From a virus, in IMG/VR virus record IMGVR_UViG_2716884754_000002, positions 2,917-66,916 of that record: a stretch of 64,000 nt of DNA. One strand, 5' to 3'. Shown in pieces: positions 2,297 through 61,834 of the stretch. The position numbers and the translations under genes are program-made. Under the pieces are notes generated by a model. It did not search any database. It worked only from the letters and a program-made list of their open reading frames with translations, and was not told where the DNA came from. Position 1 is the stretch's first letter. The number at the start of each line of letters is the position of its first letter.

Positions 2297-2304
2297 ATAT
2301 TTAT
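2297..2304 (+). promoter_or_regulatory. ATATTTAT motif (putative phage promoter)
   Basis: Exact 8-mer upstream of the helicase gene; recurs before 14 genes. Confidence 0.5.
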
Positions 2305-2317
2305 TAATATATCAAAA

Positions 2318-3721
2318 TTGATAAAAAGAATGACTAAAGAAAAAGAAAAAAATTTAGGTTATTTAGGATGGAGTTTTCAAGTAAAGTTAGTCAAACAATT
2401 AATTGAAGATACTAAGTTTTCTGAAGAAATTATGGATATTATCGATGCAAAGTATTTCGATAATGAGTACCTTAGATTAATTGTGGCTTGTCTTAAAAAT
2501 TATTATGAAAGTTACGATACTATACCTACATATGACACTATATTTCAATTAATAAGGGTAGATATTAAAAGAGAAATTGCGAGAGACTCAGCAATTGAAA
2601 TGGTTAAGGAGGTTAAAAATGTTGACAATAAAGATTGTCTACACACACAAGAAGTTGCCACTAAATTTTGTAAACAACAAGAACTTAAAAAAGCTACAAA
2701 TAAAATACAAAATATTTTAGAAGCAGGTGATTTTGACAGATATGATGAGTGTGAAGATATTTTAAAAGAAGCATTATCAGTAGGTGGGGAAAAAGACAAT
2801 GGTATTGATGTTTTTCACGCAATTGATGAAGTACTTAGTGATGATTTTAGAAATCCAGTTCCAACAGGATTGGTTGGGATAGATAACTTAATGGATGGTG
2901 GACTATCTAAAGGTGAATTAGGGGTTATTTTAGCACCTTTTGGTGTTGGTAAAACAACATTAATTACCAGAATGGCAAATACTGCATATAACTTAGGATA
3001 TAATGTAGTACAAATCTTTTTTGAAGATAATCCAAAGGTTATTCAAAGAAAACATATGACATGTTGGACAGAAATACCTTTAAATGAATTAACTGAAAGA
3101 AAAGAAGAAGTCAAAGAATTATTACCACAATTTAGAGAAAGAGAGGGTAATCTTATTTTGAAAAAAATGCCAAGTGATGGTACTACTATTAATCATATAA
3201 AACAATATTTAAGAAAATTAACTTCTAATGGTACTAAACCAGATATTGTTTTTGTTGATTATATGGATTGCGTTGTACCAACTAAACAATTTAAAGATGA
3301 ATATGCAGGTGAAGGAAATGTTATGAGACAATTCGAAACTATGATTTCAGAATTAGATATTGTTGGTTGGACTGCAGTACAAGGAAACAGAAGTTCAATA
3401 GGGGCAGATGTTGTAAAAGCAGATATGATAGGTGGGTCAATTAAAAAAGGACAAATTGGACATTTCATAATATCTGTAGCAAAAACTTTAGAACAAAAAG
3501 AAGAAGGTACTGCCACAATGGCAATATTAAAATCTAGATTCGGTAAAGATGGGATGATTTTCGAAGATATTTTATTCGATAATGGATCATTAAAAATTGA
3601 TACTAGTATATCTAGTGACGTTTCATTCTTAGAACACCAAAGAGGTGAAGAGAAAAGAAAGTCTCAGATGGTAACGGAAGCATTACGTAAGAAAAGAGAG
3701 ACATTCGGGGGAAATAAATAA
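2318..3721 (+). CDS. dnaB: DnaB-like replicative helicase (likely start ATG 2330)
   Basis: Walker A LAPFGVGKT, Walker B IVFVDYMD, WTAVQGNR and KSRFG motifs. Confidence 0.92.
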   Translation: MIKRMTKEKEKNLGYLGWSFQVKLVKQLIEDTKFSEEIMDIIDAKYFDNEYLRLIVACLKNYYESYDTIPTYDTIFQLIRVDIKREIARDSAIEMVKEVKNVDNKDCLHTQEVATKFCKQQELKKATNKIQNILEAGDFDRYDECEDILKEALSVGGEKDNGIDVFHAIDEVLSDDFRNPVPTGLVGIDNLMDGGLSKGELGVILAPFGVGKTTLITRMANTAYNLGYNVVQIFFEDNPKVIQRKHMTCWTEIPLNELTERKEEVKELLPQFREREGNLILKKMPSDGTTINHIKQYLRKLTSNGTKPDIVFVDYMDCVVPTKQFKDEYAGEGNVMRQFETMISELDIVGWTAVQGNRSSIGADVVKADMIGGSIKKGQIGHFIISVAKTLEQKEEGTATMAILKSRFGKDGMIFEDILFDNGSLKIDTSISSDVSFLEHQRGEEKRKSQMVTEALRKKRETFGGNK

Positions 3722-3747
3722 TAATAAAAAAAAGAACTAGTAAAAAA

Positions 3748-5607
3748 ATGGAGTTATCAAGCAAAATTTTATCTGATATTACTGTGTATATGAAATATGC
3801 TAAGTACTTACCAGAGTTGAATAGAAGAGAAACGTGGAACGAATTAGTTACCCGTAACAAAGAAATGCATCAGAAAAAATATCCTCATATTGCGGATAAA
3901 ATTGATGATGTGTATAAATTTGTTTATGAGAAAAAAGTATTACCCTCAATGAGGAGTATGCAATTTGGGGGAAAACCAATAGACATATCACCTAATAGAA
4001 TTTATAATTGTGCATATATGCCAATTGATCATATTGATTCATTTAGTGAATGTATGTTTTTATTGTTAGGGGGGACTGGAGTTGGTTATTCAGTACAAAA
4101 ACATCATGTAGAAAAATTACCACCAGTTAATAAACCATATAGTAAAAGAACTAAAAGATTTTTAATTGGGGACTCTATTGAGGGTTGGGCTGACTCTATT
4201 AAAGTTTTAATGAAGTCTTATCTTAATGGTAAAAGTTCTAGAATAGTGTTTGATTATTCAGATATAAGACCAAAAGGTGCGAGATTAGTTACTTCAGGTG
4301 GTAAAGCACCGGGACCTCAACCATTAAAAGAATGTATTGTTAAAATAACTGGTATTTTAGACTCTAAGGAAGACGGTGATCAATTAACTACTTTAGAAGT
4401 ACATGATATTGTTTGTCATATTGCAGATGCAGTATTGGCGGGTGGTATAAGACGAGCAGCATTAATTAGTTTATTTTCTGCTGATGATATGGAAATGATT
4501 GGTTGTAAATCTGGTAATTGGTGGGAAACTGAACCACAAAGAGGTAGAGCCAATAATTCAGCGGTTTTAATGAGACATAAGATTACTAAGAAGTTTTTCT
4601 TAAAATTATGGAAGAGGGTTGAATTAAGTGGTTCTGGAGAACCAGGAATATACTTAAACAATGATAAAGATTGGGGAACTAATCCTTGTTGTGAAATTGC
4701 CTTAAGACCTTATCAGTTCTGTAATTTATGTGAGGTTAATGTGTCAAACATTGAATCACAAGAAGATTTAAATGAAAGAGTAAAGGCGGCAGCATTTATT
4801 GGTACACTACAAGCAGGGTATACTAATTTTCATTATTTAAGAGATATTTGGCAAGAAACTACAGAAAAAGAGGCATTGATAGGTGTTAGTATGACAGGTA
4901 TTGGTAGTGGTAGAGTATTAGGGTACGATATGGAAGAAGCAGCCAAATTAGTTAAGAAAGAAAATTCTAAAGTATCTAAACTTATTGGTATTAATAAGTC
5001 GGCTAGGACAACTACTGTTAAACCTGCAGGTACTACGTCTCTTACATTAGGAACATCTTCAGGTATTCATGCGTGGCATAACGACTTCTATATTAGGAGA
5101 GTAAGAGTAGGTAAGAATGAGTCTATTTATAATTATTTAAATACACATCATTCTGAATTATTGGAGGATGATTATTTTAGACCACATGATACCGCAGTAA
5201 TTTCAATACCCCAAAAAGCACCAAAAGGTTCTATTTTGAGAACAGAATCTCCATTTGATTTATTAGAAAGAGTTAAAAAAGTAGCAACTGAATGGGTGAG
5301 AGCGGGACATAATAAAGGTTCAAATAGTCATAATGTATCTGCCACTATTTCCCTTAAAGATGAAGATTGGGAATTAGCAGGTGAATGGATGTGGGAAAAC
5401 AGAGAACATTATAATGGTTTATCGGTTTTACCTTACAATGGTGGTACATACGTACAAGCTCCATTTGAAGACTGTACAGAAGCAGATTATGAAAGAATGA
5501 TGAAAACCCTAACTGAGATTGATTTATCTAATGTAATCGAAGAAAAAGATGAAACAAATCTAAGTGGAGAACTAGCTTGTGCAGGTGGTGCATGTGAAAT
5601 CACATAA
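3748..5607 (+). CDS. nrdJ: class II (adenosylcobalamin-dependent) ribonucleotide reductase
   Basis: PSMR, YNCAY, GGTGVG, TNPCCEI active-site motif, FCNLCE, TTVKPAGT and C-terminal CAGGAC redox pair. No class I beta subunit is adjacent. Confidence 0.9.
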   Translation: MELSSKILSDITVYMKYAKYLPELNRRETWNELVTRNKEMHQKKYPHIADKIDDVYKFVYEKKVLPSMRSMQFGGKPIDISPNRIYNCAYMPIDHIDSFSECMFLLLGGTGVGYSVQKHHVEKLPPVNKPYSKRTKRFLIGDSIEGWADSIKVLMKSYLNGKSSRIVFDYSDIRPKGARLVTSGGKAPGPQPLKECIVKITGILDSKEDGDQLTTLEVHDIVCHIADAVLAGGIRRAALISLFSADDMEMIGCKSGNWWETEPQRGRANNSAVLMRHKITKKFFLKLWKRVELSGSGEPGIYLNNDKDWGTNPCCEIALRPYQFCNLCEVNVSNIESQEDLNERVKAAAFIGTLQAGYTNFHYLRDIWQETTEKEALIGVSMTGIGSGRVLGYDMEEAAKLVKKENSKVSKLIGINKSARTTTVKPAGTTSLTLGTSSGIHAWHNDFYIRRVRVGKNESIYNYLNTHHSELLEDDYFRPHDTAVISIPQKAPKGSILRTESPFDLLERVKKVATEWVRAGHNKGSNSHNVSATISLKDEDWELAGEWMWENREHYNGLSVLPYNGGTYVQAPFEDCTEADYERMMKTLTEIDLSNVIEEKDETNLSGELACAGGACEIT

Positions 5608-5629
5608 ATTAAACTACATAATATAAATT

Positions 5630-5658
5630 AAGGTGTCTTTTTAGACACCTTTTTTTTT
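5630..5658 (+). terminator. intrinsic terminator
   Basis: AAGGTGTCT-TTTT-AGACACCTT hairpin followed by a T run, just after nrdJ. Confidence 0.85.
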
Positions 5659-5692
5659 ATATAACCTTTTCTTTTAAAAAATTTATTGTAGA

Positions 5693-5700
5693 ATATTTAT
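5693..5700 (+). promoter_or_regulatory. ATATTTAT motif (putative late promoter)
   Basis: Exact 8-mer after the terminator, ending 6 nt before the first baseplate ATG. Confidence 0.6.
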
Positions 5701-5706
5701 ATACAT

Positions 5707-6090
5707 ATGGCAGATGTAAGATATATAAATATTGATTTCCCTTTTAGGAATAGTGAAAAAGGATTTTATTTTAAATTAAATAAAACAGATAAAGAAGCAA
5801 TAAAGGCAGATTTACTTCATTTATTATTAACTAATAAGGGAGAAAGATTATATATGCCTGATTTCGGTAGTGATTTAAAAAAGTTTATATTCCAACCCAA
5901 TGATAATATCACACATAGTGAAATTAGAGATAATCTAAATGAGACAATAAAAAGATATATTCCTAATTTAGTGGTGGATAGTATAGAATTTAAAAAAAAT
6001 GACGTTGAAGAAGTAATAATAGTAGAATTAAAATATACAGTAGTAGAAGGAACATTTTCATCTTCTGATGTATTACAAATAACACTTTAA
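5707..6090 (+). CDS. baseplate wedge protein, T4 gp25 / GPW-like
   Basis: LLLTNKGERLYMPDFGSDL motif and 127-aa size are typical of the gp25-like family. Confidence 0.88.
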   Translation: MADVRYINIDFPFRNSEKGFYFKLNKTDKEAIKADLLHLLLTNKGERLYMPDFGSDLKKFIFQPNDNITHSEIRDNLNETIKRYIPNLVVDSIEFKKNDVEEVIIVELKYTVVEGTFSSSDVLQITL

Positions 6091-6092
6091 CT

Positions 6093-7916
6093 ATGGAAAA
6101 GAAAATTAATTATAATAGTAGAAATTTTGCACAAGTACGGGCAGAATTAATTGCGTTTATACAACAATATTACCCAGAAGTATTCTCTGATTTTAATGAT
6201 GCATCGGTGGGTATGATGTTATTAGAATTAAATGCTGCGGTGGGAGATATGTTATCTTTCCATACAGATAGAATGTTTAATGAGACACAAATTAATTATA
6301 CACAGGAAAGGTCATCAGTCTTAGAATTAGCTAGAACTTTTGGTGTTAACATACCTGGTAAAAGACCTAGTATCACTATGGTAAATTTCTCTGTTGTAGT
6401 ACCTGTTGATAGAAATGATGGGGATAAAGCAGATTATAGTTATGCACCTTTATTATTAAAAGGGACACAAGTAAGTGGTGGTGGAAAAATATTTGAATTG
6501 GCAGACGATTTAGATTTCTCTTCACGTTTTAGTAGTAGTGGTATACCTAATATCACAGTAGTACCAAATGAAAATGCTAGTGGGGGTATAGATAATTATA
6601 CACTAACAAAAAGGGCACTTGTTTTAAATGGTATAACTAAAGAATATAAAAGAGTAATTGCTAGAGAAGATTATAAACCATTTTTTGAAATAATATTACC
6701 AGAAGAAAATGTTATTTCTATAGAAAATATTATCACATTAGAGGGTACTAATTTAACCACACCACCAACACTTAAAGATTATACTACGTTTGATAATAAT
6801 TATTACGAAGTATCTGCATTAGCCGAAGCGGAAAAGTTTATTGAAGATCCTAATGTACCAAGTACTACTGAAGGTATTAAAGCAGGAAGATGGAAAAATA
6901 TACCACAAAGATTTATAAAAGAATATACAGATAATGGTTTCTGTAAAATTATTTTTGGTGGTGGCGAAATTGATACTTCAGAATTAAATGATTTTATTGG
7001 ATGTAGGGGGCAAATTGATCAGATTGGTGATTTTGTTAATAATAATTCATTGGGTACTATACCAGAACCTGGAAGAACAATGTATGTAAAATATAGAGTA
7101 GGTGGTGGTGCAGATAGTAATGTTGGACCTAATGTACTTAAAAGTTTAGGTGAGGTGTTTATGGTAACTCCGGGAGAAGACCCAGCAATTAATCTAAATA
7201 TAAGAAATAGTTTAACAGTAAATAATGTATTACCTGCAATTGGTGGAAAAGAGCAACCTTCAATAAATGAAATAAGAAATTTAGTTAAATATAATTTTTC
7301 ATCACAAAATCGATGTGTTACTATCAAAGATTACCTTTCTAGAATTAGTTTAATGCCTGGGAAGTTTGGTGTACCTTTTAGAACAGGTGTGTGGGAACAA
7401 AGAAATAAAGTTAATATAACTATTTTAGCGTTGGATGGAGATTCCAAACTTACGAATACGTCTACAAGTACACTTAAAGAAAATATTTCTGAATATTTGG
7501 CAGATTATAGAATGTTAAATGATTATGTCACCGTAAAGGACGGTAGAATTATTAATTTATCTTTTGAAATATCTCTTTTTACCGATAAATCAACATCTAA
7601 AGGTGAGATTATGTCAGATGTTATTGAGAAAGTTGATGAATATTTTGATATTAATAAGTGGGAGATGGGTGAAAATGTTTATTTAGCACAATTAATTGAA
7701 AATATTAACAATGTAGGTGGTGTTTTAAATGTTACTGACTTAAAAATATTCAATAAAGTAGGTGGGAAATATTCATTAAATGAAATCTCTCAACCTTATA
7801 TAGATGATGCAACTAAACAAATAGACATATCGGATGATTATACCTTATTTGGTGAACCAGATGCTATGTTTGAGGTTAAATTCCCAAATAAAGACATTAA
7901 AGTAAGATTTAAATAG
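6093..7916 (+). CDS. baseplate wedge protein, T4 gp6 / baseplate J-like
   Basis: FSDFNDASVGMMLLEL, QERSSVL, IIFGGG, YRVGGG and QNRCVTIKDY motifs; follows the gp25-like gene. Confidence 0.85.
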   Translation: MEKKINYNSRNFAQVRAELIAFIQQYYPEVFSDFNDASVGMMLLELNAAVGDMLSFHTDRMFNETQINYTQERSSVLELARTFGVNIPGKRPSITMVNFSVVVPVDRNDGDKADYSYAPLLLKGTQVSGGGKIFELADDLDFSSRFSSSGIPNITVVPNENASGGIDNYTLTKRALVLNGITKEYKRVIAREDYKPFFEIILPEENVISIENIITLEGTNLTTPPTLKDYTTFDNNYYEVSALAEAEKFIEDPNVPSTTEGIKAGRWKNIPQRFIKEYTDNGFCKIIFGGGEIDTSELNDFIGCRGQIDQIGDFVNNNSLGTIPEPGRTMYVKYRVGGGADSNVGPNVLKSLGEVFMVTPGEDPAINLNIRNSLTVNNVLPAIGGKEQPSINEIRNLVKYNFSSQNRCVTIKDYLSRISLMPGKFGVPFRTGVWEQRNKVNITILALDGDSKLTNTSTSTLKENISEYLADYRMLNDYVTVKDGRIINLSFEISLFTDKSTSKGEIMSDVIEKVDEYFDINKWEMGENVYLAQLIENINNVGGVLNVTDLKIFNKVGGKYSLNEISQPYIDDATKQIDISDDYTLFGEPDAMFEVKFPNKDIKVRFK

Positions 7917-13298: not shown

Positions 13299-13316
13299 AT
13301 GAAAATAAGACAATAA

Positions 13317-13324
13317 ATATTTAT
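13317..13324 (+). promoter_or_regulatory. ATATTTAT motif
   Basis: Exact 8-mer ending 5 nt before ATG 13330. Confidence 0.55.
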
Positions 13325-26678: not shown

Positions 26679-26686
26679 ATATTTAT
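26679..26686 (+). promoter_or_regulatory. ATATTTAT motif
   Basis: Exact 8-mer ending 5 nt before ATG 26692. Confidence 0.55.
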
Positions 26687-29627: not shown

Positions 29628-29635
29628 ATATTTAT
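29628..29635 (+). promoter_or_regulatory. ATATTTAT motif
   Basis: Exact 8-mer upstream of ATG 29655. Confidence 0.5.
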
Positions 29636-33843: not shown

Positions 33844-33875
33844 TTTGGTTAATTAAAATAAATTCACTATATTTG
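33844..33875 (+). promoter_or_regulatory. Bacteroidota-type -33/-7 promoter
   Basis: TTTG-N20-TATATTTG upstream of the primase gene. Confidence 0.6.
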
Positions 33876-37726: not shown

Positions 37727-39000
37727 GTTTCTTTTTTAATAAAATCCGGATTAGGTGCTACAAATGCTCTCAGTTTAACTTTGTCCCAATCCTTTAATTC
37801 AGTAGGGGATTCTTCATCCCATAATTCATCATCATAATCCTCCGTAGGTTTATCACCCATTTTTAAAATAGACATTGTTCTATGCCACCCTTCTATTAAT
37901 TGATAAGTTCCATCAGGATTTTGTAGGATAATAACTGGTTCGTTCATTCCATCGTCTCTCCTCATACTCATTTGTGTATCCATTCGTTCTTCATCGTTTG
38001 GTACGTTATATGCATTTATATTACCGAAGTCTCTTTGTTCAAACGCTCTTACTGTACGTTTATCAAAATCCATTGGGTTTACATTTAAAACTTGCAACTT
38101 CCACGGACCTTTTAAATAGTTATACCACCACCCATTTCCATCACCTTTAATATAAGGTATTGGATCACCATTATAAGTGTTTAAAATATCTTTCATCGCT
38201 GGACGATGACCTGGTGCTCTCATTAATATGATGTTTCTATAATAATCTTGTAAAACATATTCTGGTGTGTCAGGAAATTCTCTCCTCATTTTTTCATATA
38301 TTCTTTTGTGGGGATTATTATCTTTATATATTGGAATACTAGTTACCTCTTCTTCTAACTCCACACCCATTTCATATTTGTTTTTGTTTGGGTTTGCATC
38401 ACTAACATTCCAATACTTTAAATCCTCTTCTATTTTAGATAATTGACTTTCAGTAATAATAATTTTTCTTTTAGTAATACTTTCATTTAAATTTCGTATT
38501 ACATTCACATCCATATCAAAAACATCGTCATAATCACCTTGTTCTATGAAATCATCTAAGTGAGTTGTTAATTCTGGATTTACCATATTACCATAATCAA
38601 TTTCCCAATCTAGTGCATCACCTGCATCATCCGAATCAGATGCCACCACACTATTTGTCGCTTCTCTCCAAGAGTTAACATTTTGGTACATTTTAACTTC
38701 ATACTCTTTCATTTGGGGTACAACTACTTCATCAATAGATGAAAAGTTACCATCAATAGTATTGTGTAAGTTGTTTTTATATAAAGAATAAAAATACATC
38801 AGTATATCCTTATCTAATGCTAAGTTACCTATTATATCATTATCCATTAAAAGGTACATATCAGTTCTATCACCACTCTGACTATTACGATTTTTTATTT
38901 TACCACCTAAAGTTCTATATATTTCTCTTAATACCGCAACCTCAAATTTATTGAACGGTTGGGTATCGGTAGTATTTCTTATAATATCTTTTAGTTCCAT
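37714..39000 (-). CDS. two-domain protein with C-terminal ParB/Srx-like domain (track start 39048)
   Basis: EPVIILQNPDGTYQLIEGWHRT motif; internal linker NLNESITKRKIIITESQLSKIEE; start MELKDIIR at 39000. Confidence 0.7.
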   Translation of the reverse strand: MELKDIIRNTTDTQPFNKFEVAVLREIYRTLGGKIKNRNSQSGDRTDMYLLMDNDIIGNLALDKDILMYFYSLYKNNLHNTIDGNFSSIDEVVVPQMKEYEVKMYQNVNSWREATNSVVASDSDDAGDALDWEIDYGNMVNPELTTHLDDFIEQGDYDDVFDMDVNVIRNLNESITKRKIIITESQLSKIEEDLKYWNVSDANPNKNKYEMGVELEEEVTSIPIYKDNNPHKRIYEKMRREFPDTPEYVLQDYYRNIILMRAPGHRPAMKDILNTYNGDPIPYIKGDGNGWWYNYLKGPWKLQVLNVNPMDFDKRTVRAFEQRDFGNINAYNVPNDEERMDTQMSMRRDDGMNEPVIILQNPDGTYQLIEGWHRTMSILKMGDKPTEDYDDELWDEESPTELKDWDKVKLRAFVAPNPDFIKKETQSS

Positions 39001-39031
39001 TTGTTTTTTTAAAAAAAAATGCTTATCTTTG
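39000..39031 (+). promoter_or_regulatory. Bacteroidota-type -33/-7 promoter
   Basis: TTTG-N20-TATCTTTG upstream of the nuclease gene. Confidence 0.65.
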
Positions 39032-39036: not shown

Positions 39037-39044
39037 ATAAATAT
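39037..39044 (-). promoter_or_regulatory. ATATTTAT motif on the minus strand
   Basis: Plus-strand ATAAATAT, 36 nt upstream of the minus-strand ATG at 39000. Confidence 0.5.
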
Positions 39045-41474: not shown

Positions 41475-43856
41475 ATGGAAAATCAATTTGAAGTGGTTAG
41501 AACAAAAAAAATAGTAGAAGTTCCGAGTAACGCACAAATAAGGGTAGATTGGCAAGATTACCCTGAAAATAGAACATTAGAAACGATCAATAGAGTTAAA
41601 ACTTATTTTTCGGATAAGTATGGTTTACCTAAATCATCCATCAAAATTAATTTTATACCGATTTTAAAAAATAGTGTGGGTAAAGTAGTAGACATCACCG
41701 ATGGATTGATAGATAATATAATGGACACCGCATATCAAAGAAAATTATTTACTCAGTGGTTAGAAATAAATGGAGTTGATATAGATTTTGATCGGTTATG
41801 TAGATTAGACGAAAAAGTTAATGATGTATTAGTAAATTTAGGAGAAGAAGATATAAGATATAGGAGATGGAGTATAAATAGGTTATGGATTGATAATTTT
41901 TTATCTTTTGGTGGTGATAACATAGTGGATTATAATAATCTTAAAGGGTTAACTATAGTGAATTCATTACCAGCCAATCAAGGTGGTAAAACAATTTTTA
42001 GTATTGATTCTTTACTATTCTTATTTTTTGGTAAGACAACTAAAACTGATACTGCCGCTGAAATATTTAATACATTTACTGATAAAAACGAAGTGGTAGT
42101 GGGAGGCGAAATCAATATTGATGGTGAAGAATATATTATTGAACGTAAATTATTTAGGAAAAAAACTAAAACAGGTAATTATAAAACATCTTCTGAATTA
42201 AATTTCTATAGAGTTTTATCAGATGGTAGTCACGAAAATTTAGAGGGTGAACAACGAAGAGAAACTGATAAATTAATTAGTGAAACTATAGGTACGTTTG
42301 ATGATTTTATGTTAACTATTGTTGCAACTGCAAAAAATTTAGAAGATTTATTAGAAACCAAACCAACACAAAGAGGAAGGTTGTTAACTAAATTTATTGG
42401 TTTAGAAATTATTGAGAAAAAAGAAGAAATTAATAAGGGTTTAATGTCTGATTTCAAAAGTAAAATGAAATCAAATATTCATAATACTAAAGAATTAGAA
42501 TTTGAAATTGATGATAATTTAGACAAAATAAAAGAAAATAAAAATACAATAAAAGAAAATAATAATAAATTATTAAAAATAGATGAAGAGATCGCTGAAG
42601 CCAATAATAAAAAAGAAGTGTTATTATCAGAAAAATATGTTATTGATGATGAAGTAAGTAGTGTAAACCCTAAAACTTTAAAGGACGAAATAGGTTCATT
42701 AACAGAAGAGGGTGTAACTAAGAAAAAATCTTTAGATAAGATAGTAAAAGATATTAGTAAGATAGGTAAGGTGGAGTATGATGAAGATACTCATGAAGAA
42801 TTGAGACTGGAAGAAAAAGATTTATTGTTGAGAGAAAGTAAAGAGGAGAGTAATAAAGAAAGAAAAGAGTTATTAATTAAGAATTTAGAAGAGGGTGAAA
42901 CATGTCCTACATGTAAAAGAGCGTTAGATGATGTAGATCATAGTAAAGAGATAAAAGCGGAAAAGGAAAATTTAAAAACCATCAAAGGTTTAATAAAAGA
43001 AATACAAAAAGATTTAGGGATAACAATTAAGTCTTTAGATAAACAAAACAACCTAAAAAATATTTCTGATGAAAAAGATAAATTAGAACTAAGTAGAGAT
43101 AGATTAGAAGTAGAGATAGAAGGTTTAAGGGTAGATTTAAAAGAAAAAATGAATCTACAAAAGAACTATGAACGTAATATTGAGTATATTGAAAAGAATA
43201 GAAACTTAGAAAGTAAAATATTGGGGTACAATCAACTCTTAGAGAAGTTAAATAAAAAAAGAGATAGTGTTAGAAATGAAATACAAGACTTAAAAAATGA
43301 TAATAAAGTTAAAAAAGAAATAAACACCAAAAACAAACTATTAATTCAACAAATATTGAGAGAAGAGGAAGTATTAAAAATATTTGAAATATATAATAGG
43401 ATGATTGGTAAAAACGGTATATCTAAGTTGGTTTTATCTTCAGTAATACCTATTATAAATTATGAGTTAGATAGGTTATTAGATGAAGTATGTGATTTTC
43501 AAATACAATTAGAGATTAATGATAAAAATGAAGTAGATTTTAATATAGTTAAAAAAGACGTAACCAAAAAGTTAAAATCAGGATCAGGATTAGAAACAAC
43601 GTTAGCATCTTTAGCACTTAGATGTGTATTAGGTAGAATTTCTACGCTACCAAAACCAAATATTATCGTCTTTGATGAGGTGTTAGGTAAAGTTGCGAAT
43701 ATAAATTTAGATTATGTTAAAATATTTTTTGATAAGATAAAAAAGATGTATGAGGTGATTTTACTCATAACACATAACCCTATCACGCAAGATTGGGGTG
43801 ACAAAATTATCACTATTGAAAAAAATAATGACGTTTCGTCATTGCAAATCAAATAA
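41475..43856 (+). CDS. sbcC: SbcC/Rad50-like SMC ATPase
   Basis: Walker A NQGGKT, zinc hook CPTC, signature GSGLE, Walker B IVFDEVLG and LITHN. Confidence 0.92.
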   Translation: MENQFEVVRTKKIVEVPSNAQIRVDWQDYPENRTLETINRVKTYFSDKYGLPKSSIKINFIPILKNSVGKVVDITDGLIDNIMDTAYQRKLFTQWLEINGVDIDFDRLCRLDEKVNDVLVNLGEEDIRYRRWSINRLWIDNFLSFGGDNIVDYNNLKGLTIVNSLPANQGGKTIFSIDSLLFLFFGKTTKTDTAAEIFNTFTDKNEVVVGGEINIDGEEYIIERKLFRKKTKTGNYKTSSELNFYRVLSDGSHENLEGEQRRETDKLISETIGTFDDFMLTIVATAKNLEDLLETKPTQRGRLLTKFIGLEIIEKKEEINKGLMSDFKSKMKSNIHNTKELEFEIDDNLDKIKENKNTIKENNNKLLKIDEEIAEANNKKEVLLSEKYVIDDEVSSVNPKTLKDEIGSLTEEGVTKKKSLDKIVKDISKIGKVEYDEDTHEELRLEEKDLLLRESKEESNKERKELLIKNLEEGETCPTCKRALDDVDHSKEIKAEKENLKTIKGLIKEIQKDLGITIKSLDKQNNLKNISDEKDKLELSRDRLEVEIEGLRVDLKEKMNLQKNYERNIEYIEKNRNLESKILGYNQLLEKLNKKRDSVRNEIQDLKNDNKVKKEINTKNKLLIQQILREEEVLKIFEIYNRMIGKNGISKLVLSSVIPIINYELDRLLDEVCDFQIQLEINDKNEVDFNIVKKDVTKKLKSGSGLETTLASLALRCVLGRISTLPKPNIIVFDEVLGKVANINLDYVKIFFDKIKKMYEVILLITHNPITQDWGDKIITIEKNNDVSSLQIK

Positions 43857-43871
43857 TTTGCCGTATATTTG
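43842..43871 (+). promoter_or_regulatory. Bacteroidota-type promoter
   Basis: TTG-N19-TATATTTG upstream of the 43931/sigma operon. Confidence 0.5.
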
Positions 43872-43902: not shown

Positions 43903-43910
43903 ATATTTAT
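43903..43910 (+). promoter_or_regulatory. ATATTTAT motif
   Basis: Exact 8-mer upstream of 43931, tandem with a host-type promoter. Confidence 0.5.
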
Positions 43911-45363: not shown

Positions 45364-45371
45364 ATATTTAT
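45364..45371 (+). promoter_or_regulatory. ATATTTAT motif
   Basis: Exact 8-mer after the terminator, heading the 45400-49909 operon. Confidence 0.6.
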
Positions 45372-49909: not shown

Positions 49910-49927
49910 TTTTTTTAATAAATTTTA

Positions 49928-49935
49928 ATATTTAT
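49928..49935 (+). promoter_or_regulatory. ATATTTAT motif
   Basis: Exact 8-mer upstream of GTG 49955. Confidence 0.55.
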
Positions 49936-49954
49936 AAATAAACATTATCTCATT

Positions 49955-50215: not shown

Positions 50216-51366
50216 TGGGAACTAGCGAAGCATACGAAAAATATAATAAGGTTAAAAAAGTAATAAAATCTTGTGAAAATGAGGCACAATTAAATGTCGC
50301 AATAAGAATGTTTAATATATTATTAGAAAAATATGGTAAAGACATTCCTGACAATAATCTTCATATATTAAAAGAATTATTAAGTCTTATGAGACTTAAA
50401 TGTACAGGTGATGAAGAAATTAATGAAATATTTAATAGTGGTGAAGATTTTAGTAAACAATTAGGGTTAAGTCAAACAAGAGAGTTAAGAGATTTAGCAC
50501 CTAAAATGTTAAAAGAAATTAATATAGGAACACAAATTGAACAAAACCATTTACCTTTAGAACAAGCTAAAGAGTTAGCTACACAAAATGTACAACAAAT
50601 ATCAGATTACTATACTAATCCAGATTATTGTATAATTGCGGTGGAGAGTAAATCAGGTAATAAAAAAACAGTTAGGGTTGAGAAAAAAGTATATGAAAAA
50701 AGCGAAGTAGAAAAAGATGTTTTAATTATGGATGATATGGAAATATTTCATGAAGATTTAGATACTAATGAAATTGCAAATAGATTAAGAGATCAGTTAA
50801 GACAACAACAGAGAAAAAAGTTTACTAAAAAAGAAATTTTTGATAAGATAAGGGAAAAACGTCAACAAGAACTAGAAAGAAGAAGGTCCGAAGATTTTAT
50901 TGAAGATGAAGAACTAGAAGAAGCCACTGGTGCGTCTAGTGCAGGTGCGTTTGTAGGTCCATTAAATCAAGAACCAATCACTAAAAGATTTGCTAAAAAT
51001 GAAATACCGGTGACGAAAAATGGTATCACTAAACCTATAGGTAAAATGTATTCAATGGATATTTTAGAAGAAGATGAAGAAATAGAAGAAGCAGTAGATT
51101 ATGGGGGTGCGGTAGGATCTTATGTTACACCAGCAATGTGGGCTAAAAACAAAAAGAATTGGAGGGGTGCACATAAATTAGCATATCCGGGAGGTAAATT
51201 TGTTAATATTAAAAAGAAATGTAGTACTCACCCTTATTGTGATCAAGGTGCGGGTGGACCGAGTGGGTCTCCTATAACACTTTCTAACACATCGGATATG
51301 AAAATAGACAATGTATTTAATGAAAATAAAATAATTAAAAAAAGTAATTTAAAACTTAAAAAATAA
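50215..51366 (+). CDS. hypothetical multi-segment acidic protein
   Basis: Segments separated by EINE, ELEEA and EIEEA; TGASSAGAFVGP and KKCSTHPYCDQG motifs. Confidence 0.7.
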   Translation: MGTSEAYEKYNKVKKVIKSCENEAQLNVAIRMFNILLEKYGKDIPDNNLHILKELLSLMRLKCTGDEEINEIFNSGEDFSKQLGLSQTRELRDLAPKMLKEINIGTQIEQNHLPLEQAKELATQNVQQISDYYTNPDYCIIAVESKSGNKKTVRVEKKVYEKSEVEKDVLIMDDMEIFHEDLDTNEIANRLRDQLRQQQRKKFTKKEIFDKIREKRQQELERRRSEDFIEDEELEEATGASSAGAFVGPLNQEPITKRFAKNEIPVTKNGITKPIGKMYSMDILEEDEEIEEAVDYGGAVGSYVTPAMWAKNKKNWRGAHKLAYPGGKFVNIKKKCSTHPYCDQGAGGPSGSPITLSNTSDMKIDNVFNENKIIKKSNLKLKK

Positions 51367-51385
51367 GACATTATCTAATTAATGT

Positions 51386-51393
51386 ATATTTAT
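51386..51393 (+). promoter_or_regulatory. ATATTTAT motif
   Basis: Exact 8-mer upstream of ATG 51412. Confidence 0.55.
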
Positions 51394-51411
51394 ATATAAA
51401 CAAACAATAAA

Positions 51412-52260
51412 ATGGAAAAGAAATTTTTAACTAAAAATACAAAAGTTACCATTAATGAAGAGGCGGCACCTAATGGATTAAAAACTTATGAAAAAATCCA
51501 TAAAGAAGATGCAACTATTAATAATGATGCATTAAAGGAGATTGGGAAGAAGTTAGAAGATTATTATGGTGATGAATTAAAAGAATTAGATCCGGTATTA
51601 AAGGTAGATAGAGAACAAGAATCAACTGGTGATGTAGATGTATATGATATTGAAGCATTAGGTACTGGAATGCAGGCATTAAAATATGATGATGAAGGTA
51701 GTGAAGTATTTAAAAAGTTTATGAAAAGAATGGACGATTTAAATGATACCTCAGAATACGATAAAGAATTTGGTACTAAAGATGGTTTCGGTGCAACAGA
51801 CAAAAAAGATGACACTTATGAGAAATTAGAGAAAGCATCTGATGAGTATAAAAAGAATAAATATGATGAACCTAACCCTGAAATTGCAACACGTAGAGTA
51901 AGAGTTCAAACAGAGTCAAAAAATGAAAAAATGAAAAGATTAAATTTTAAAAACGAATTTACTTCAATAGAAGAAGTTAAAGAATTAATACCTGAAAATT
52001 ATAAGGTGGATGATCACACATTTTTAATGACAGATGGAAACCAAACATATAAATTTAGATGGGACGAATCTTTAAAAGAGGCAACAGTATTAAATTATAA
52101 AAACACTCAACAAATTAGTGAAAATGTTGATAAAATGAAAAAACTTTATGATTTTAAATATGGTGATGTAAACACTAAAACCAATGATTATACTGAAGAA
52201 ACAAAAGTTTTTAAAAATTTAATGGAATCTATTAAAGATAAAGATTTATTATCTGAATAA
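51412..52260 (+). CDS. acidic hypothetical protein (head scaffold/internal protein candidate)
   Basis: TINEE, QTESK, ISENV and LMESI segments; D/E/K-rich. Confidence 0.65.
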   Translation: MEKKFLTKNTKVTINEEAAPNGLKTYEKIHKEDATINNDALKEIGKKLEDYYGDELKELDPVLKVDREQESTGDVDVYDIEALGTGMQALKYDDEGSEVFKKFMKRMDDLNDTSEYDKEFGTKDGFGATDKKDDTYEKLEKASDEYKKNKYDEPNPEIATRRVRVQTESKNEKMKRLNFKNEFTSIEEVKELIPENYKVDDHTFLMTDGNQTYKFRWDESLKEATVLNYKNTQQISENVDKMKKLYDFKYGDVNTKTNDYTEETKVFKNLMESIKDKDLLSE

Positions 52261-52285
52261 ACCACAAATCTAAAACCACATAATT

Positions 52286-52309
52286 AAACCTCCATTTGGG
52301 GGTTTTTTT
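52286..52309 (+). terminator. intrinsic terminator
   Basis: AAACCTCC-ATTT-GGGGGTTT followed by a T run. Confidence 0.75.
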
Positions 52310-52320
52310 ATGCCTTATAT

Positions 52321-52328
52321 ATATTTAT
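52321..52328 (+). promoter_or_regulatory. ATATTTAT motif
   Basis: Exact 8-mer after the terminator, ending 5 nt before ATG 52334. Confidence 0.6.
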
Positions 52329-52333
52329 AAGTA

Positions 52334-53089
52334 ATGGGTTTAAATTTTAAAAATATATTATTAGAATCAATAATTGACGAATTAGATAATCTAAGTAGAA
52401 TGGATAAAGCGGTTCTTAAGTTTATCCACAACTCTATGTCACAAGAAAAATTTCCTCATCTAGTTGGTAATAAAAGCTATGATTTTGATGCTAGTGACGC
52501 ACTAAGAATTAATGATTTAATTAATAGTTTTGGTTTAAAAGATTATGACTATGCTTTCAAAATGTGGAATTTTTATAAAAGGTTTGGGAATGTCTTATTT
52601 GATGATGAGGTATTTGATGACTTTTCATACAAACAAGAAGATTATGATGATGCAACTAAACTTATAGTTGCAAAATATTATATAGATAATCTAGTAGGTA
52701 GGGAAATTTATCCGGGATGGACAATAGAAATGATGGAAGATCCAATTGGTATGGTAGAAGAAGATGTTATGACGTTTACAGTGGGTAATGATAAGTCAGA
52801 AGTAATATATCTCTATTTACTAGATTTAAATGGTAAAAGATTACAGGGAGATATAATTACTCATAATGTAGGATTAGGCGCATATTTTGTGGAAGCAGGT
52901 ATATCTAAACATAATGATGTTATTGATAGTATTGAGATACCAAACCCTTTAAAAGAAAGATTAATAGATTTAAGTGATGAAAGTTTGGAAAAATATTTTG
53001 ATTTCATTATTGAACAAATACAAGATGAGATTGAAGAATGGGATGAAGACATCCTACACTACTACAAAGATTGGGAACCAGAAAGGTAA
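52334..53089 (+). CDS. acidic hypothetical protein with (I/L)-x-E leader
   Basis: MGLNFKNILLES start; 251 aa. Confidence 0.7.
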   Translation: MGLNFKNILLESIIDELDNLSRMDKAVLKFIHNSMSQEKFPHLVGNKSYDFDASDALRINDLINSFGLKDYDYAFKMWNFYKRFGNVLFDDEVFDDFSYKQEDYDDATKLIVAKYYIDNLVGREIYPGWTIEMMEDPIGMVEEDVMTFTVGNDKSEVIYLYLLDLNGKRLQGDIITHNVGLGAYFVEAGISKHNDVIDSIEIPNPLKERLIDLSDESLEKYFDFIIEQIQDEIEEWDEDILHYYKDWEPER

Positions 53090-53132
53090 AATAAGTACGA
53101 AGAAACCAATAATAGAAGAAAAAAACAAAAAG

Positions 53133-53969
53133 ATGTTATTAAAAAAAGGAAGTAAAGGGGATGATGTTAAAGAATTACAAAAATTATTAAAAATTACTGT
53201 TGATGGTGATTTTGGTCCAGCAACTGAATTAGCCGTTATGAAATTTCAAGGACAACAAGGGTTAAAAACCGATGGTATAGTCGGTCCTAAGACATGGGCA
53301 AAAATACAGAGTAGAAATGGGGGTGAACAAAATAGTGATGGGTATGTTTGGATATTAGATAATGGACATGGAGGGATAATAGACGGTGTATATCAAACAT
53401 CTGGTAAACGATCACCTAAATGGGAAGATGGTACACAGTTATTTGAAGGAGAGTTCAATAGAGCGGTTGTAAAGAGAATAATTAAGATGTGTGAAAAGGA
53501 TGGTATTGAATGTATTAATTTAGTTGATACCGAAAAAGATTTATCATTAAGATGGAGAACTGATAAAGCAAATGATATATACAGAGAAAGACAACAAAGT
53601 GATGGTAAGAAATGTATTTATGTTTCAGTACACGCTAATGGATTTAATAAAGAATCTGCACACGGTTGGTCGGTGTATACAACCGTAGGGGAAACTAAAT
53701 CAGATAAAATTGCTCAGATATTACACGAAAAGGCAAAGGCAGAATTTCCTACACATAAAATGAGGATGGATAATAGAGATGGTGATGCCGATAAAGAATC
53801 TAACTTTTGGGTTTTACGTAAAGTTGTTATGCCTTCCATATTATCAGAAAACTTTTTTATGACTAATAGAGAAGAAAGTAAACTTTTATTAAGTGAGGAA
53901 GGAAGAGATAGGATTGCTAAAATACATTACCAAATGATAAAAGAAGTAGAAAAGAATAAAATTATATAA
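53133..53969 (+). CDS. endolysin: peptidoglycan-binding domain + N-acetylmuramoyl-L-alanine amidase (Amidase_3); track start 52974
   Basis: MLLKKGSKGDDVKELQ...DGIVGPKTW (PG-binding), ILDNGHGG, EGEFN, YVSVHANG and ILSENFFMTN. Confidence 0.88.
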   Translation: MLLKKGSKGDDVKELQKLLKITVDGDFGPATELAVMKFQGQQGLKTDGIVGPKTWAKIQSRNGGEQNSDGYVWILDNGHGGIIDGVYQTSGKRSPKWEDGTQLFEGEFNRAVVKRIIKMCEKDGIECINLVDTEKDLSLRWRTDKANDIYRERQQSDGKKCIYVSVHANGFNKESAHGWSVYTTVGETKSDKIAQILHEKAKAEFPTHKMRMDNRDGDADKESNFWVLRKVVMPSILSENFFMTNREESKLLLSEEGRDRIAKIHYQMIKEVEKNKII

Positions 53970-54776: not shown

Positions 54777-54803
54777 ATAATAACAATAATTAAATTAAGA
54801 AAA

Positions 54804-56012: not shown

Positions 56013-56020
56013 ATATTTAT
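56013..56020 (+). promoter_or_regulatory. ATATTTAT motif
   Basis: Exact 8-mer upstream of ATG 56042. Confidence 0.5.
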
Positions 56021-59379: not shown

Positions 59380-59387
59380 ATATTTAT
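59380..59387 (+). promoter_or_regulatory. ATATTTAT motif
   Basis: Exact 8-mer ending 6 nt before ATG 59394. Confidence 0.55.
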
Positions 59388-59393
59388 TAATAT

Positions 59394-61796
59394 ATGGATA
59401 AAAAATCATTAGACATAATAGTAGAAGAATTCTTTGATACCGGTAAATTGGTATTAAATGAAAATTACTGGGATGATACAGTAAGAATATTTACTAATTT
59501 AAGAAATAATCCTCAAACCGTTGATCAGTTATTAGATAGATATGACAGTATCCGTAATGGTGTCTATTCAGATAGAATTGGAAGGTTAAACGATATGATG
59601 GTTAATAATGAAATATCCGTATTTGATTTTATTGAAGGTTTACAAAGTGATGAAGTTGATGAAGAAGAATATTCGGAAGATGGGGTTATTTTCCCAACAA
59701 CTGACACTACTGAGGTAGAAGATGAAAAAGAGGTTGAAGTTTCTGACGAAGAATCTAAAGAAGAACCATTATATATTAGTGATAAAGTAGTAAAATTAAC
59801 CAATCCCATACAAAGAAAAAATCAAATTAAAAAACAAAATAATACTCCTTTATTACCATTATCTAGAAATTATGATGGTGATAAAGATAGTGAGTTATAT
59901 AAGTCTAATTTAAGATTGTTACAATATATTCTATGGAAAGGAGCCTGGACAAGAGAAGACATAGGTCCAACAGAAACTAGTGAATTGAAAAATGAAATAG
60001 ATAATTCCGAATTTGGGGAAATGACTGATATGTTACTTAGACTTTTCCAAACTATTCAAATGCAAAAAGAATATAAAGATAATAATGAACCGGATTATAT
60101 ACTATATTTTAATGATGGGCAACCTTCTTTAGAATGGAAAGAAGGTAGTATACCTATGTCTGTATATAAAAATTTACCACAAATATATAAAAATGAAGGT
60201 ATAGTAGATAAGGGGACATGGGATAAATTGATGAAAGTGATGGAGGAAAAAGAAATTATAAAATTAGAATTCATACCTAATTCTGAAGGTAATATAGATA
60301 GAATTGTTGATAAATCTCAGATAAAAACTATTGACGTAAATAATGATACCTTTGATGAAAGTAAGAGAGACATGTTTAAGTCATTATCACTTAAATTTTT
60401 TAATAATTTACATAATAATGAAATATATAAAACGACATTCCAAAAACAATGGGGGGATTTACAACAAAAGTTTTTGAAGGGTATACAAAGAGTAAGAAAA
60501 ATAGAAGAATTAGAGAAGAAAAAGGAAAAATTTTTAAATGGTTTAACTCTAGATTATAGAGAAAGAAATGAAAAAGGTATTAAGCGATATATAAAAGATA
60601 ATTTTGATACCCCAATTACAGATTTAAAGTCCACATCAAATAATATAGATGTAGAACCCATAGAGTTTTGGGAGAATTATAAAGATAGATGGGACGAAAT
60701 TAATAGAAGAACAGGTGGTGGAAGTACTGAAGGAGAAAGAGAAAAGAAGGATTTACAAAAAGAATATGTTAAATATAGAAATCGAAGATCTACTATTGAG
60801 GGTATATATGAAAAAATAATTGATAAATTAAAAGAGGCATTGAGAGGAAGAATATTATCTATAAATGAAATTAACACCATATTACATAATGTAAATGACT
60901 CATTATATGAAGTATTTGATACTGATAGACGACTTACCACACAAATAAACAATGCTAGAAACCTAATTAAGGATCTCTTTGATAAATTAAGTAAAAAGGA
61001 TGATATAGATGTATATGACGTAGTAGATTTCTTAAAAAACATAAATACTAGAAAACTCAGTTATGATGTATACGAAAAAAGTTTTTGTGGGTGTGAAGGT
61101 AATTATTTTAGAGGGTGTAATGGAAAAGAAGGTGATAAATCTAAGTTATTCAATACTGCCGTAAAAGAAATTAAAAAATATTTAGACGGAGACTTCAGAG
61201 ATTTGACAATTACAGGTGCTTCCGAATCAATTTATAACTTAATTATAGATAAGGAAACTACTAATGCGGATAAGTATGATATAATATCTAATAGTGCGGT
61301 TACTTTAACTAATAATGTAGTAATACCTGAAGGTAAAAAGATTGAGATTAAAAAATACGATGAGAGTTCATCATACACCTTATCCGAATTTATTGGTTTA
61401 TATAAAAAACAAAAGGATATAGTTAAGTATAAATACGAAAATGCTGAATATTATAAAAGATATAATAAAATAATAGAAGACGTAGTAAGACGTTTAAACT
61501 TGAATGATAATGGATTAGCAAATAGCTTCATAAATAATACAGAAGATGACGATAAATTATTTGGTGTTTTTGTTAGTAATTATATGTTTTATAAGTACGA
61601 TCAAATAGAAGTATTTTGGGATACAGATTCAGATCAAAAAAGATTTAGTGATGAATTTAGAATAACTCTTAAATTTAGAATTAAAGATAATGAACAACCC
61701 TCCCAATGGGTAACTGGTAATTGTAATCTTGATGAACCTAATACTATAGAAGAATCAATAACTAACTTTTTCGACACAGGTAATTTTGAATTTTAA
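59394..61796 (+). CDS. large hypothetical protein (800 aa) with FFDTG motif at both termini
   Basis: IIVEEFFDTGKLVLNE at the N-terminus and IEESITNFFDTGNFEF at the C-terminus. Confidence 0.7.
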   Translation: MDKKSLDIIVEEFFDTGKLVLNENYWDDTVRIFTNLRNNPQTVDQLLDRYDSIRNGVYSDRIGRLNDMMVNNEISVFDFIEGLQSDEVDEEEYSEDGVIFPTTDTTEVEDEKEVEVSDEESKEEPLYISDKVVKLTNPIQRKNQIKKQNNTPLLPLSRNYDGDKDSELYKSNLRLLQYILWKGAWTREDIGPTETSELKNEIDNSEFGEMTDMLLRLFQTIQMQKEYKDNNEPDYILYFNDGQPSLEWKEGSIPMSVYKNLPQIYKNEGIVDKGTWDKLMKVMEEKEIIKLEFIPNSEGNIDRIVDKSQIKTIDVNNDTFDESKRDMFKSLSLKFFNNLHNNEIYKTTFQKQWGDLQQKFLKGIQRVRKIEELEKKKEKFLNGLTLDYRERNEKGIKRYIKDNFDTPITDLKSTSNNIDVEPIEFWENYKDRWDEINRRTGGGSTEGEREKKDLQKEYVKYRNRRSTIEGIYEKIIDKLKEALRGRILSINEINTILHNVNDSLYEVFDTDRRLTTQINNARNLIKDLFDKLSKKDDIDVYDVVDFLKNINTRKLSYDVYEKSFCGCEGNYFRGCNGKEGDKSKLFNTAVKEIKKYLDGDFRDLTITGASESIYNLIIDKETTNADKYDIISNSAVTLTNNVVIPEGKKIEIKKYDESSSYTLSEFIGLYKKQKDIVKYKYENAEYYKRYNKIIEDVVRRLNLNDNGLANSFINNTEDDDKLFGVFVSNYMFYKYDQIEVFWDTDSDQKRFSDEFRITLKFRIKDNEQPSQWVTGNCNLDEPNTIEESITNFFDTGNFEF

Positions 61797-61826
61797 ATAT
61801 AAATTACTATATTTACAAAAAATTAA

Positions 61827-61834
61827 ATATTTAT
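61827..61834 (+). promoter_or_regulatory. ATATTTAT motif
   Basis: Exact 8-mer ending 4 nt before ATG 61839; a TTTG-N19-TATATTTA element lies at 61785-61815. Confidence 0.5.

Follow-up and report, generated by a model that had tools for sequence, protein, structure and literature searches.

Introduction

A textbook phage strategy is to transcribe early genes from host-type promoters and then to employ a phage sigma factor that reads a minimal, phage-specific box. In phage T4, the late promoter TATAAATA is read by the phage sigma factor gp55 together with gp33 and the gp45 clamp, and the late mRNAs have Shine-Dalgarno leaders. Here, we analyze the recurrent 8-nucleotide (nt) word ATATTTAT in a 64,000-nt stretch of viral DNA (IMG/VR record IMGVR_UViG_2716884754_000002; G000:C4:2917-66916), hereafter the window, where an earlier reading of the sequence alone had proposed a phage-specific promoter derived from the -7 box of a Bacteroidota host. 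The word marks about 70 gene starts in this phage, and it is also used by a large clade of relatives. It is very probably a core promoter element, and probably one of the -10 type that is read with a phage-encoded sigma factor; the box itself is new, while the underlying phage strategy is known.

The second system for comparison is the Bacteroidota primary-sigma promoter, which combines a -33 TTTG with a -7 TAnnTTTG (PMC6847099). In Flavobacterium johnsoniae, the positions T-12, A-11, T-8, T-7, T-6 and G-5 are near-invariant and transcription starts 4-5 nt past the box; a clear -33 element is often missing, and AT-rich tracts lie near -18 and -28 (PMC6847099). The Bacteroidota do not use Shine-Dalgarno sequences, and their translation initiation is tuned by upstream A-rich bases (PMC6847099). 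Among described phages, the 'moraphages' (2025) are large phages of aquatic habitats whose predicted hosts are Flavobacteriia and whose core genes include a sigma factor; by description they are like the present phage, with large aquatic myovirus-like genomes and a gene core of sigma factor, gp25, gp6, primase and exonuclease, and their paper uses 'promoter' only in an unrelated context (PMC12619734). The literature yielded no paper joining ATATTTAT with promoter and phage, nothing specific on Bacteroidetes phage late promoters, and no description of the box or promoter analysis for this phage group.

The locus resembles the T4 late system in several respects. A single 8-bp AT-rich element of the -10 type, without a -35 partner, occurs in tens of copies before particle genes, the phage has a contractile tail and baseplate genes of the gp25/gp6 type, and it encodes a protein with a sigma domain 2 whose best match in sequence and structure, a weak one (E = 0.005), is gp55. 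In the register proposed below, TATTTATW agrees with TATAAATA at six of eight positions, the two central ones being different, and TATTTATA is the exact reverse complement of TATAAATA; on the sense strand of the relatives' upstream regions, TATAAATA stays near expectation (52 versus 31), against 176 copies for ATATTTAT. The differences are that the gp55-like candidate has 245 amino acids (aa) and an extra C-terminal helical domain, that many units here are leaderless as judged by spacing, and that the box also precedes some replication genes. With the Bacteroidota primary-sigma promoter, the box shares an ATATTT core, or alternatively T-12/A-11/T-8/T-6, and a similar inferred start distance (PMC6847099). 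It differs from that promoter in having A or T in place of G-5, in having no -33 element, in not being preceded by T, and in a leaderless ATG peak that lies 1-2 nt away from where the alignment proposed in the sequence-only reading would put it.

Placement and conservation of the box

The placement of ATATTTAT is far from chance. Its 33 copies in the whole window do not represent an overall enrichment over the 28.4 found in whole-sequence shuffles; as the claim is about placement, this null is the wrong one, and it was replaced by tests confined to non-coding DNA. In particular, the non-coding DNA of the window, 1,704 nt in all, contains 13 of the 21 plus-strand copies, compared to 1.28 +/- 1.10 when it is shuffled within segments (maximum of 6 in 2000 shuffles; Poisson P of about 1e-9), and the 62.3 kb of coding DNA contain just eight. 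In the seven phage contigs taken together, 71 sense copies are found in 186 upstream non-coding regions (11.5 kb), compared to the 7-13 expected from shuffles and Markov models of order 1-3, with 23 antisense copies in the same regions; the word is the top 8-mer upstream of phage genes, above poly-A and poly-T. No comparable concentration is seen in the intergenic DNA of the bacterial contigs that were assembled together with the phage.

Further, the relatives of the phage repeat this pattern. The sigma-70-like protein of the phage has relatives on at least 186 IMG/VR contigs, and 80 of these loci (45-83% identity) were fetched to supply the set of upstream regions; its 900 distinct regions (59 kb) hold 176 copies of ATATTTAT versus 31 expected, again the commonest 8-mer, with the antisense word at background (45 versus 29 expected). 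Overall, the excess over composition-matched shuffles is 5-10 fold. The enrichment over shuffled non-coding DNA, both in the window and phage-wide, agrees with the sequence-only reading, all 14 of whose sites (13 on the plus strand and one on the minus strand at 39037-39044) carry the exact 8-mer at the 4-36 nt from gene starts that it had given, including the six copies located 4-6 nt before an ATG. It had also placed three copies behind intrinsic terminators (5693, 45364 and 52321), and hairpins with T-runs were located upstream of each. Terminator adjacency is real; it concerns a minority of the boxes, because only 5 of 69 lie within 50 nt of a hairpin with a T-run in a stringent scan.

The orientation of the box follows that of the downstream gene, so that minus-strand genes carry minus-strand boxes and divergent gaps contain boxes on both strands, one toward each gene. 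One copy is located 7 nt before a tRNA-Ala gene, which argues against a purely translational signal. Palindromic or paired ATAAATATTTAT copies were seen in several divergent gaps (C12:27163/27166, C12:24680/24685, C18:11908-11921 and C9:22007/22024); the palindrome at 13313-13324 of the window also includes a minus-strand copy at 13313, which has no minus-strand gene and looks incidental.

Orthologous upstream regions in the relatives retain the exact word to a large extent. For example, the box before the gp25-like baseplate gene (5693) is unchanged in all of the 15 distinct regions upstream of orthologues (51-98% aa identity), its spacing being 18-19 nt in the most distant ones, and the box before the DnaB-like helicase operon (2297) is exact in five of six, with differing flanks. 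The boxes at 29628 and 51386 are kept in 5/5 and 3/3 orthologous regions, which include one 53%-identity relative and several 38%-identity relatives, respectively, with unrelated flanks; the box at 45364 is kept in 5/5 relatives (32-62% identity) at variable spacing. The minus-strand box at 39037-39044 is kept in 3/3 relatives, and these have no ATG at 39048; for this gene, ATG 39000 is the likelier start, as the ATG at 39048 is absent in the relatives. The box at 13317, which lies within the palindrome ATAAATATTTAT, is kept in two of six regions. The copy at 43903 is missing from all 16 orthologous regions, where host-type boxes are found instead, and it is probably not a conserved promoter. 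As judged from these comparisons, the pattern is the phylogenetic footprint of a functional element, because the exact word is retained upstream of orthologues while its flanks are replaced and its spacing shifts. The claim of a phage-specific, strand-oriented, promoter-like element is thereby borne out, with conservation in relatives added to it.

Spacing to start codons and register of the box

When the spacing between the box and the first ATG of the downstream open reading frame is counted from the box end, two ranges are preferred. In this phage (n = 77), 21 distances are 4-6 nt and 25 are 13-18 nt; in the relatives (n = 248), the corresponding counts are 65 and 91. Between them is a trough at 8-12 nt, and the zone at 0-3 nt is nearly empty, with 3 of 325 sites in the phage and its relatives together, although AT-rich control words fill the same zone freely. 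This combination of an exclusion zone and a peak therefore fits a -10-type element, since a start codon cannot precede the transcription start. The peak at 4-6 nt also accords with the proposal in the sequence-only reading that the spacing implies leaderless or near-leaderless mRNAs.

The alignment of 386 distinct sites contains no conserved upstream box and no preferred TTTG spacing, so that the proposed absence of a -33 element at ATATTTAT sites is upheld by a flat TTTG spacing and the lack of any upstream column. The remaining signals are a weak TT located 14-15 nt upstream of the box, which is about 27-28 nt upstream of the inferred start, a G or A directly before the box, and AA at nt 5-6 after it. 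The base preceding the 8-mer is A in 124, G in 101, T in 90 and C in 32 cases; irrespective of this base, the ATG peak attributed to leaderless units spans 4-6 nt past the 8-mer and is highest at 5. From these columns, the extended box can be written R-ATATTTAT-WWW-N-AA, with ATATTTATW as the clade consensus.

These distances also bear on how the box is to be aligned with the host element. The sequence-only reading had taken it as TAnnTTTG with the final G changed to A in the same register, which fails on two counts: the ATG peak predicted at 3 nt is nearly empty, and the preceding base is not T. Most likely, a register with TATTTATW at -12 to -5 fits better. When TATTTATW is aligned to TAnnTTTG, the box-to-ATG spacing becomes 3, 4 or 5 nt with a mode of 4, as in the host class. 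The positions would then be A-13, T-12, A-11, T-10, T-9, T-8, A-7, T-6 and W-5, where T-12, A-11, T-8 and T-6 are common to the host box and positions -7 and -5 are different.

Metatranscriptomes were searched for two parts of the window. No matching run is listed for 43500-53400. For 5600-7400, small shares appear in three runs as a few short assembled contigs that carry no 5'-end information: the pieces from two marine runs are exact inside the gp25-like gene (5831-5983) and the gp6-like gene (6664-6918), and a third piece spans 5616-5781. DNA carry-over is possible in these contigs, and no conclusion on expression or starts is drawn from them.

Host-type promoters and the genes under each class

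The phage uses a second class of promoter, TTTG (often TTTGG or TTTGAC)-N19-20-TATATTTG(TA), with about 14 full copies. In the relatives' upstream regions, TATATTTG occurs 75 times versus 10 expected, and its distance from TTTG is 19-20 nt in 109 of 138 cases. By its sequence and geometry, this class is the published Bacteroidota primary-sigma promoter. Across the clade, ATGs at host-type boxes peak at precisely 4 nt past the G (39 of 148), which would imply leaderless mRNAs with the A of the ATG at +1. This peak matches the F. johnsoniae G-5 rule, so that the spacing method, applied to a control class, recovers a rule known from mapped starts. For the primase gene, which has one of these promoters in the window, ATG 33881 is a likelier start than GTG 33875, which is probably too early a call.

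A minor class, TTGAC(A/T)-N17-18-TATATTTA(A/T), was also observed, with 18 of 23 cases in the phage and its relatives at 17-18 nt; its geometry is of the host type, A takes the place of the final G, and a few TATATTTAT copies overlap with it. Promoters of the E. coli (Escherichia coli) type, TTGACA-N17-TATAAT with 16-18 nt of spacing, show no enrichment (102 versus 127 expected, and 80 versus 95 expected).

The two main classes precede different sets of genes. ATATTTAT is found upstream of the genes for the large terminase, portal, tail sheath, a head-tail adaptor-like protein, baseplate hub and gp25 wedge, as well as many large proteins of unknown function in the structural block and in the block at 45-62 kb. 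Host-type boxes are found upstream of the genes for DNA polymerase, primase, DNA methyltransferase and a peptidase, the nuclease/SbcCD-like operon and small unknown genes; the operon containing the sigma-70-like gene has host-type boxes in this phage and in all relatives checked. The sequence-only reading had described the box as marking a late (structural/cargo) regulon. The enrichment in particle genes sustains this description, while the helicase and ribonucleotide reductase (RNR) operon, a second helicase, and the absence of the 43903 copy in 16 relatives speak against it; from gene content, the ATATTTAT class appears enriched for particle genes and not purely late.

Proposed mechanism and candidate readers

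In the proposed mechanism, the host core RNA polymerase, equipped with a phage-encoded sigma factor, would melt the DNA at a lone box with no -33/-35 partner, and transcription would begin about 5-6 nt past the last T. About a quarter of the units would start on the A of the ATG, yielding leaderless mRNAs, and most others would have a leader of only about 8-13 nt. Early and replication genes (DNA polymerase, primase, methyltransferase and the sigma-70-like factor) would use TTTG-N19-20-TATATTTG, read by the host primary sigma. The result would be a two-step programme, with host-type promoters used first and then ATATTTAT for particle genes and some replication genes. We infer the start, the timing and the pairing of sigma factor and box from sequence. 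Searches for a phage RNA polymerase (PF00562, PF00623 and PF00940) gave no matches on the phage contigs of this fragmented assembly, PF00940 matching nowhere, the control included; the host core enzyme is therefore assumed.

The phage carries its own sigma genes, as had been proposed: three genes of the sigma family were detected, and all three are conserved across the clade (Table 1). The family of the 245-aa gp55-like protein has members at no fewer than (at least) 104 IMG/VR viral loci. When its profile (23 sequences) was searched against PDB, the only meaningful match was T4 gp55 (E = 0.005; residues 20-142 versus 18-144). Its AlphaFold model (mean predicted local distance difference test score of 75) was compared with 48,161 chains, and the top match was 7d7d_F, which is gp55 in the T4 late transcription complex (Z of 10.5, root-mean-square deviation of 4.6, 115 aligned residues). 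A Foldseek search of PDB with the same model gave no match at E <= 0.001, and the weak rows were mostly sigma factors. The gene itself has no ATATTTAT within 2.6 kb upstream in almost all relatives. The gp55-like protein is ranked first because gp55 of T4 provides the classic case of a sigma factor that reads an isolated 8-bp box; that this divergent sigma factor reads ATATTTAT is a tentative assignment, with somewhat less than an even chance of being right.

Several points weigh against a promoter of the -10 type that is read with a phage-encoded sigma factor, the gp55-like one included. The position of the transcription start comes from ATG spacing alone, and some TATATTTAT copies are preceded by TTGAC at a distance of 18 nt, so that the classes overlap at their edges. 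The conserved copies of ATATTTAT before the DnaB-like helicase/RNR operon and a second DNA helicase mean that the box is not a clean late marker. The link between the 245-aa protein and gp55 is marginal, given its E value and a tie in Z scores, as the next structural matches are many sigma domain 2 structures with Z of 8-10, and sigma-B reaches 10.4. T4 gp55 has no region 4, while the 245-aa protein carries four additional helices at its C terminus, a domain that some of the alignments pair with sigma region 4. Region 4 normally needs a -35-type box, and both well-recognized phage sigma factors keep it. A clamp of the gp45 type (PF09116 and PF02916) gave no matches in the fragmented assembly, where gp33 was not searched for.

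The reader could instead be the sigma-70-like protein at 44445-45278, a full sigma factor with regions 1.2, 2 and 4 that is kept in the viral contigs counted above, with the motif enriched in the 80 that were fetched, and whose host-type promoter would have it made before the ATATTTAT genes. Its region 2.4 differs from the E. coli sigma-70 sequence at the positions matching T440 and R441, which was counted in its favor. However, its near-canonical region 4.2 (KERIRQ) would demand a -35-type box, none of which is present at the 386 sites, and the minor class TTGAC-N17-18-TATATTTA would suit it better and might be its target; we consider it unlikely, at perhaps one chance in four, that this protein reads ATATTTAT. 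A recent capture of the protein from Bacteroidota was considered and found no support, its nearest clusters in the protein atlas being mostly viral. The ECF-like (extracytoplasmic function) sigma factor is a far weaker candidate and very unlikely to be the reader; at the 386 sites, the offsets of AAC/AACAA, as an ECF-type -35 box, are flat. The host primary sigma holoenzyme could also read the box as a weak variant of its own -7 element, perhaps after modification by the phage or with a co-activator. This is made plausible by the ATATTT, or T-12/A-11/T-8/T-6, that ATATTTAT and TATATTTG have in common, by the weak TT seen some 27-28 nt ahead of the inferred start, by those TATATTTA(T) copies that have TTGAC-N18, and by the many F. 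johnsoniae promoters with AT-rich sequence near -18 and -28 and no clear -33 (PMC6847099). Against it, G-5 and either T-12 or T-7, which are near-invariant in mapped host promoters, are missing from the box, perfect host-type boxes are kept for a different gene set, which suggests two separate recognition systems, and the phage invests in three clade-conserved sigma genes; a host sigma, alone or modified, is accordingly an improbable reader, though less so than the ECF-like factor.

Two further explanations dispense with a promoter at the word itself. A translation-initiation or mRNA signal, in the manner of a 'Kozak-like' A/U-rich context, or mere AT-rich filler, would suit a box near start codons and a predicted host phylum that has A-rich tuning and no Shine-Dalgarno sequences (PMC6847099). 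It would not suit an ATG spacing that ranges from 4 to 47 nt, a near-empty 0-3 nt zone that AT-rich controls fill, a copy before a tRNA gene, the retention of the exact 8-mer while adjoining AT-rich bases vary, or the 5-10 fold excess over composition-matched shuffles; of all the explanations, this is the least probable, and we give it hardly any weight. A binding site for a phage DNA-binding regulator, overlapping promoters that went unrecognized, is nearly as improbable. A short exact word in about 70 copies could be an operator, and palindromic ATAAATATTTAT versions occur, but most copies are non-palindromic and strictly gene-oriented, no other promoter-like element is present at the sites, and the distance rule to leaderless ATGs mirrors that of true -7 boxes.

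A phage-read core promoter at ATATTTAT, if correct, has several consequences. It may be, though we hold it less probable than otherwise, that a large, global clade of uncultured giant phages, whose hosts are probably Flavobacteriia, runs its middle/late programme from a lone TATTTATW via a gp55-like sigma factor, with about a quarter of both unit types starting at AUG. Leaderless translation would then be a major phage-exploited route in a phylum that has no Shine-Dalgarno sequences and whose own mRNAs are mostly leadered; this heavy leaderless use in both promoter classes, in hosts of this kind, would be the most interesting by-product. The box would provide a testable operon map of widespread uncultured giant phages, dividing host-type from phage-type genes by sequence alone, and would predict exact transcription starts. 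Moreover, should the reader be identified, the compact pair of promoter and sigma factor could be turned into a tool for orthogonal expression in Bacteroidota.

Table 1. Boxes, host-type promoters, a terminator and sigma genes of the phage. Coordinates refer to the window unless a contig is named; fractions are orthologous regions that keep the box.
Feature	Coordinates	Strand	Distance to start and context
ATATTTAT box	2297..2304	+	13 nt to TTG 2318, 25 nt to ATG 2330; DnaB-like helicase/RNR operon
Intrinsic-terminator-like hairpin with T-run	5630..5651	+	End of RNR operon
ATATTTAT box	5693..5700	+	6 nt to ATG of gp25-like baseplate wedge gene; 34 nt past terminator T-run
ATATTTAT box	13317..13324	+	5 nt to ATG 13330; 666-aa protein, structural block
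ATATTTAT box	26679..26686	+	5 nt to ATG 26692; 972-aa protein; kept 3/3
ATATTTAT box	29628..29635	+	19 nt to ATG 29655; second copy at 29600
ATATTTAT box	39037..39044	-	36 nt to ATG 39000; only long minus-strand gene
ATATTTAT copy	43903..43910	+	20 nt to ATG 43931; DUF6576 gene and sigma gene
ATATTTAT box	45364..45371	+	28 nt to ATG 45400; terminator 45300-45319 upstream
ATATTTAT box	49928..49935	+	19 nt to GTG 49955; kept 8/17
ATATTTAT box	51386..51393	+	18 nt to ATG 51412
ATATTTAT box	52321..52328	+	5 nt to ATG 52334; directly after terminator 52286-52305
ATATTTAT box	56013..56020	+	21 nt to ATG 56042; kept 1/2
ATATTTAT box	59380..59387	+	6 nt to ATG 59394; 800-aa protein
ATATTTAT box	61827..61834	+	4 nt to ATG 61839
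Host-type promoter, TTTG-N20-TATATTTG	33844..33875	+	5 nt before ATG 33881, primase gene
Host-type promoter	37063-37094		In window; further copies on C9, C12 and C14
Host-type promoter, TTTG-N20-TATCTTTG	39000..39031	+	Before nuclease/SbcCD-like operon; divergent from minus-strand ATATTTAT
Host-type promoter, TTG-N19-TATATTTG	43842..43871	+	Before sigma operon; -7 boxes conserved here in relatives
Host-type promoter, TTTG-N20-TATATTTG	63296..63327	+	Before gene 63371
ECF-like sigma factor, 162 aa	36092..36580	+	Regions 2 and 4_2
Sigma-70-family factor, 277 aa	44445..45278	+	Regions 1.2, 2 and 4; close to primary sigmas in PDB
gp55-like sigma factor, 245 aa	C9:60980-61717 = L001:4981-5718	-	Outside window; region 2 below Pfam Sigma70_r2 cut-off

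Phage genome, relatives and host

The window is part of a 1.34-Mb assembly of 27 contigs. The sequencing run that best matches this DNA dates from 2018 and comprises 2 million letters; it may be a single-cell assembly. Seven of these (C4, C9, C12, C14, C17, C18 and C24), totaling about 262 kb, have a G+C content of about 29%, compared to 34-38% for the remaining contigs. The low-GC contigs encode structural proteins (gp25-like and gp6-like baseplate wedge proteins, tail sheath, baseplate hub, portal and large terminase), as well as a DnaB-like helicase, ribonucleotide reductase, primase, DNA polymerase, an SbcCD-like nuclease and an amidase. By their gene content, these contigs together appear to be the fragments of a single giant phage with a contractile tail (a myovirus); IMG/VR lists C9 as a separate viral contig (L131). 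Relatives of the gp6-like protein occur at 29 IMG/VR loci (57-89% identity) and those of the 972-aa protein at eight, while the 800-aa protein (59394-61796) has none in IMG/VR. Among 50,697 phage records searched by megablast and tblastn, no close cultured relative was found, and the matches to cultured phages were distant baseplate ones only, to Flavobacterium and Microcystis phages.

Among the higher-GC contigs (C1-C3, C5-C8, C10, C11 and others), C8 carries a gene for a photosystem reaction centre; these contigs also encode three group 1/2 sigma factors that, on inspection of their translations by eye, are of the cyanobacterial type. Going by these genes, the co-assembled bacterium is a cyanobacterium. 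The TTTG-N19-20-TATATTTG promoter type is not present on its contigs. The promoter grammar of the phage points to a Bacteroidota host, and the cyanobacterial co-assembly is probably not a host link. The Bacteroidota host put forward in the sequence-only reading thus draws its support from the phage's own host-type promoters, and has the cyanobacterial nature of the co-assembled bacterium against it. Such promoters inside a phage also offer a way to call the host phylum without relying on binning, and in this case the call contradicts the co-assembled cyanobacterial genome.

Minor motifs

A 13-mer shared upstream of genes 777 and 58315 was set aside, as it led to no wider motif. The motif (T)ATAATAACA recurs about 13 times at 12-37 nt upstream of starts, and TAATAACA is present 11 times versus 1.6 expected. 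The places of (T)ATAATAACA include 36078-36091 and 54777-54790 in the window and the upstream regions at C4:68639, C4:82566, C9:51086, C14:4539 and C17:4566; one copy directly precedes the gene of the ECF-like sigma factor. The motif could belong to leaders, or it could represent a third type of promoter whose core resembles TATAAT. Further, a short leader, AAATCAAAC, is located 4-5 nt before the ATG and is common to genes under host-type boxes, with places at 35238-35246 of the window, at C9:6454, 16967 and 27901 (minus strand), and at C12:37770 (minus strand); AATCAAAC occurs six times versus 0.3 expected.

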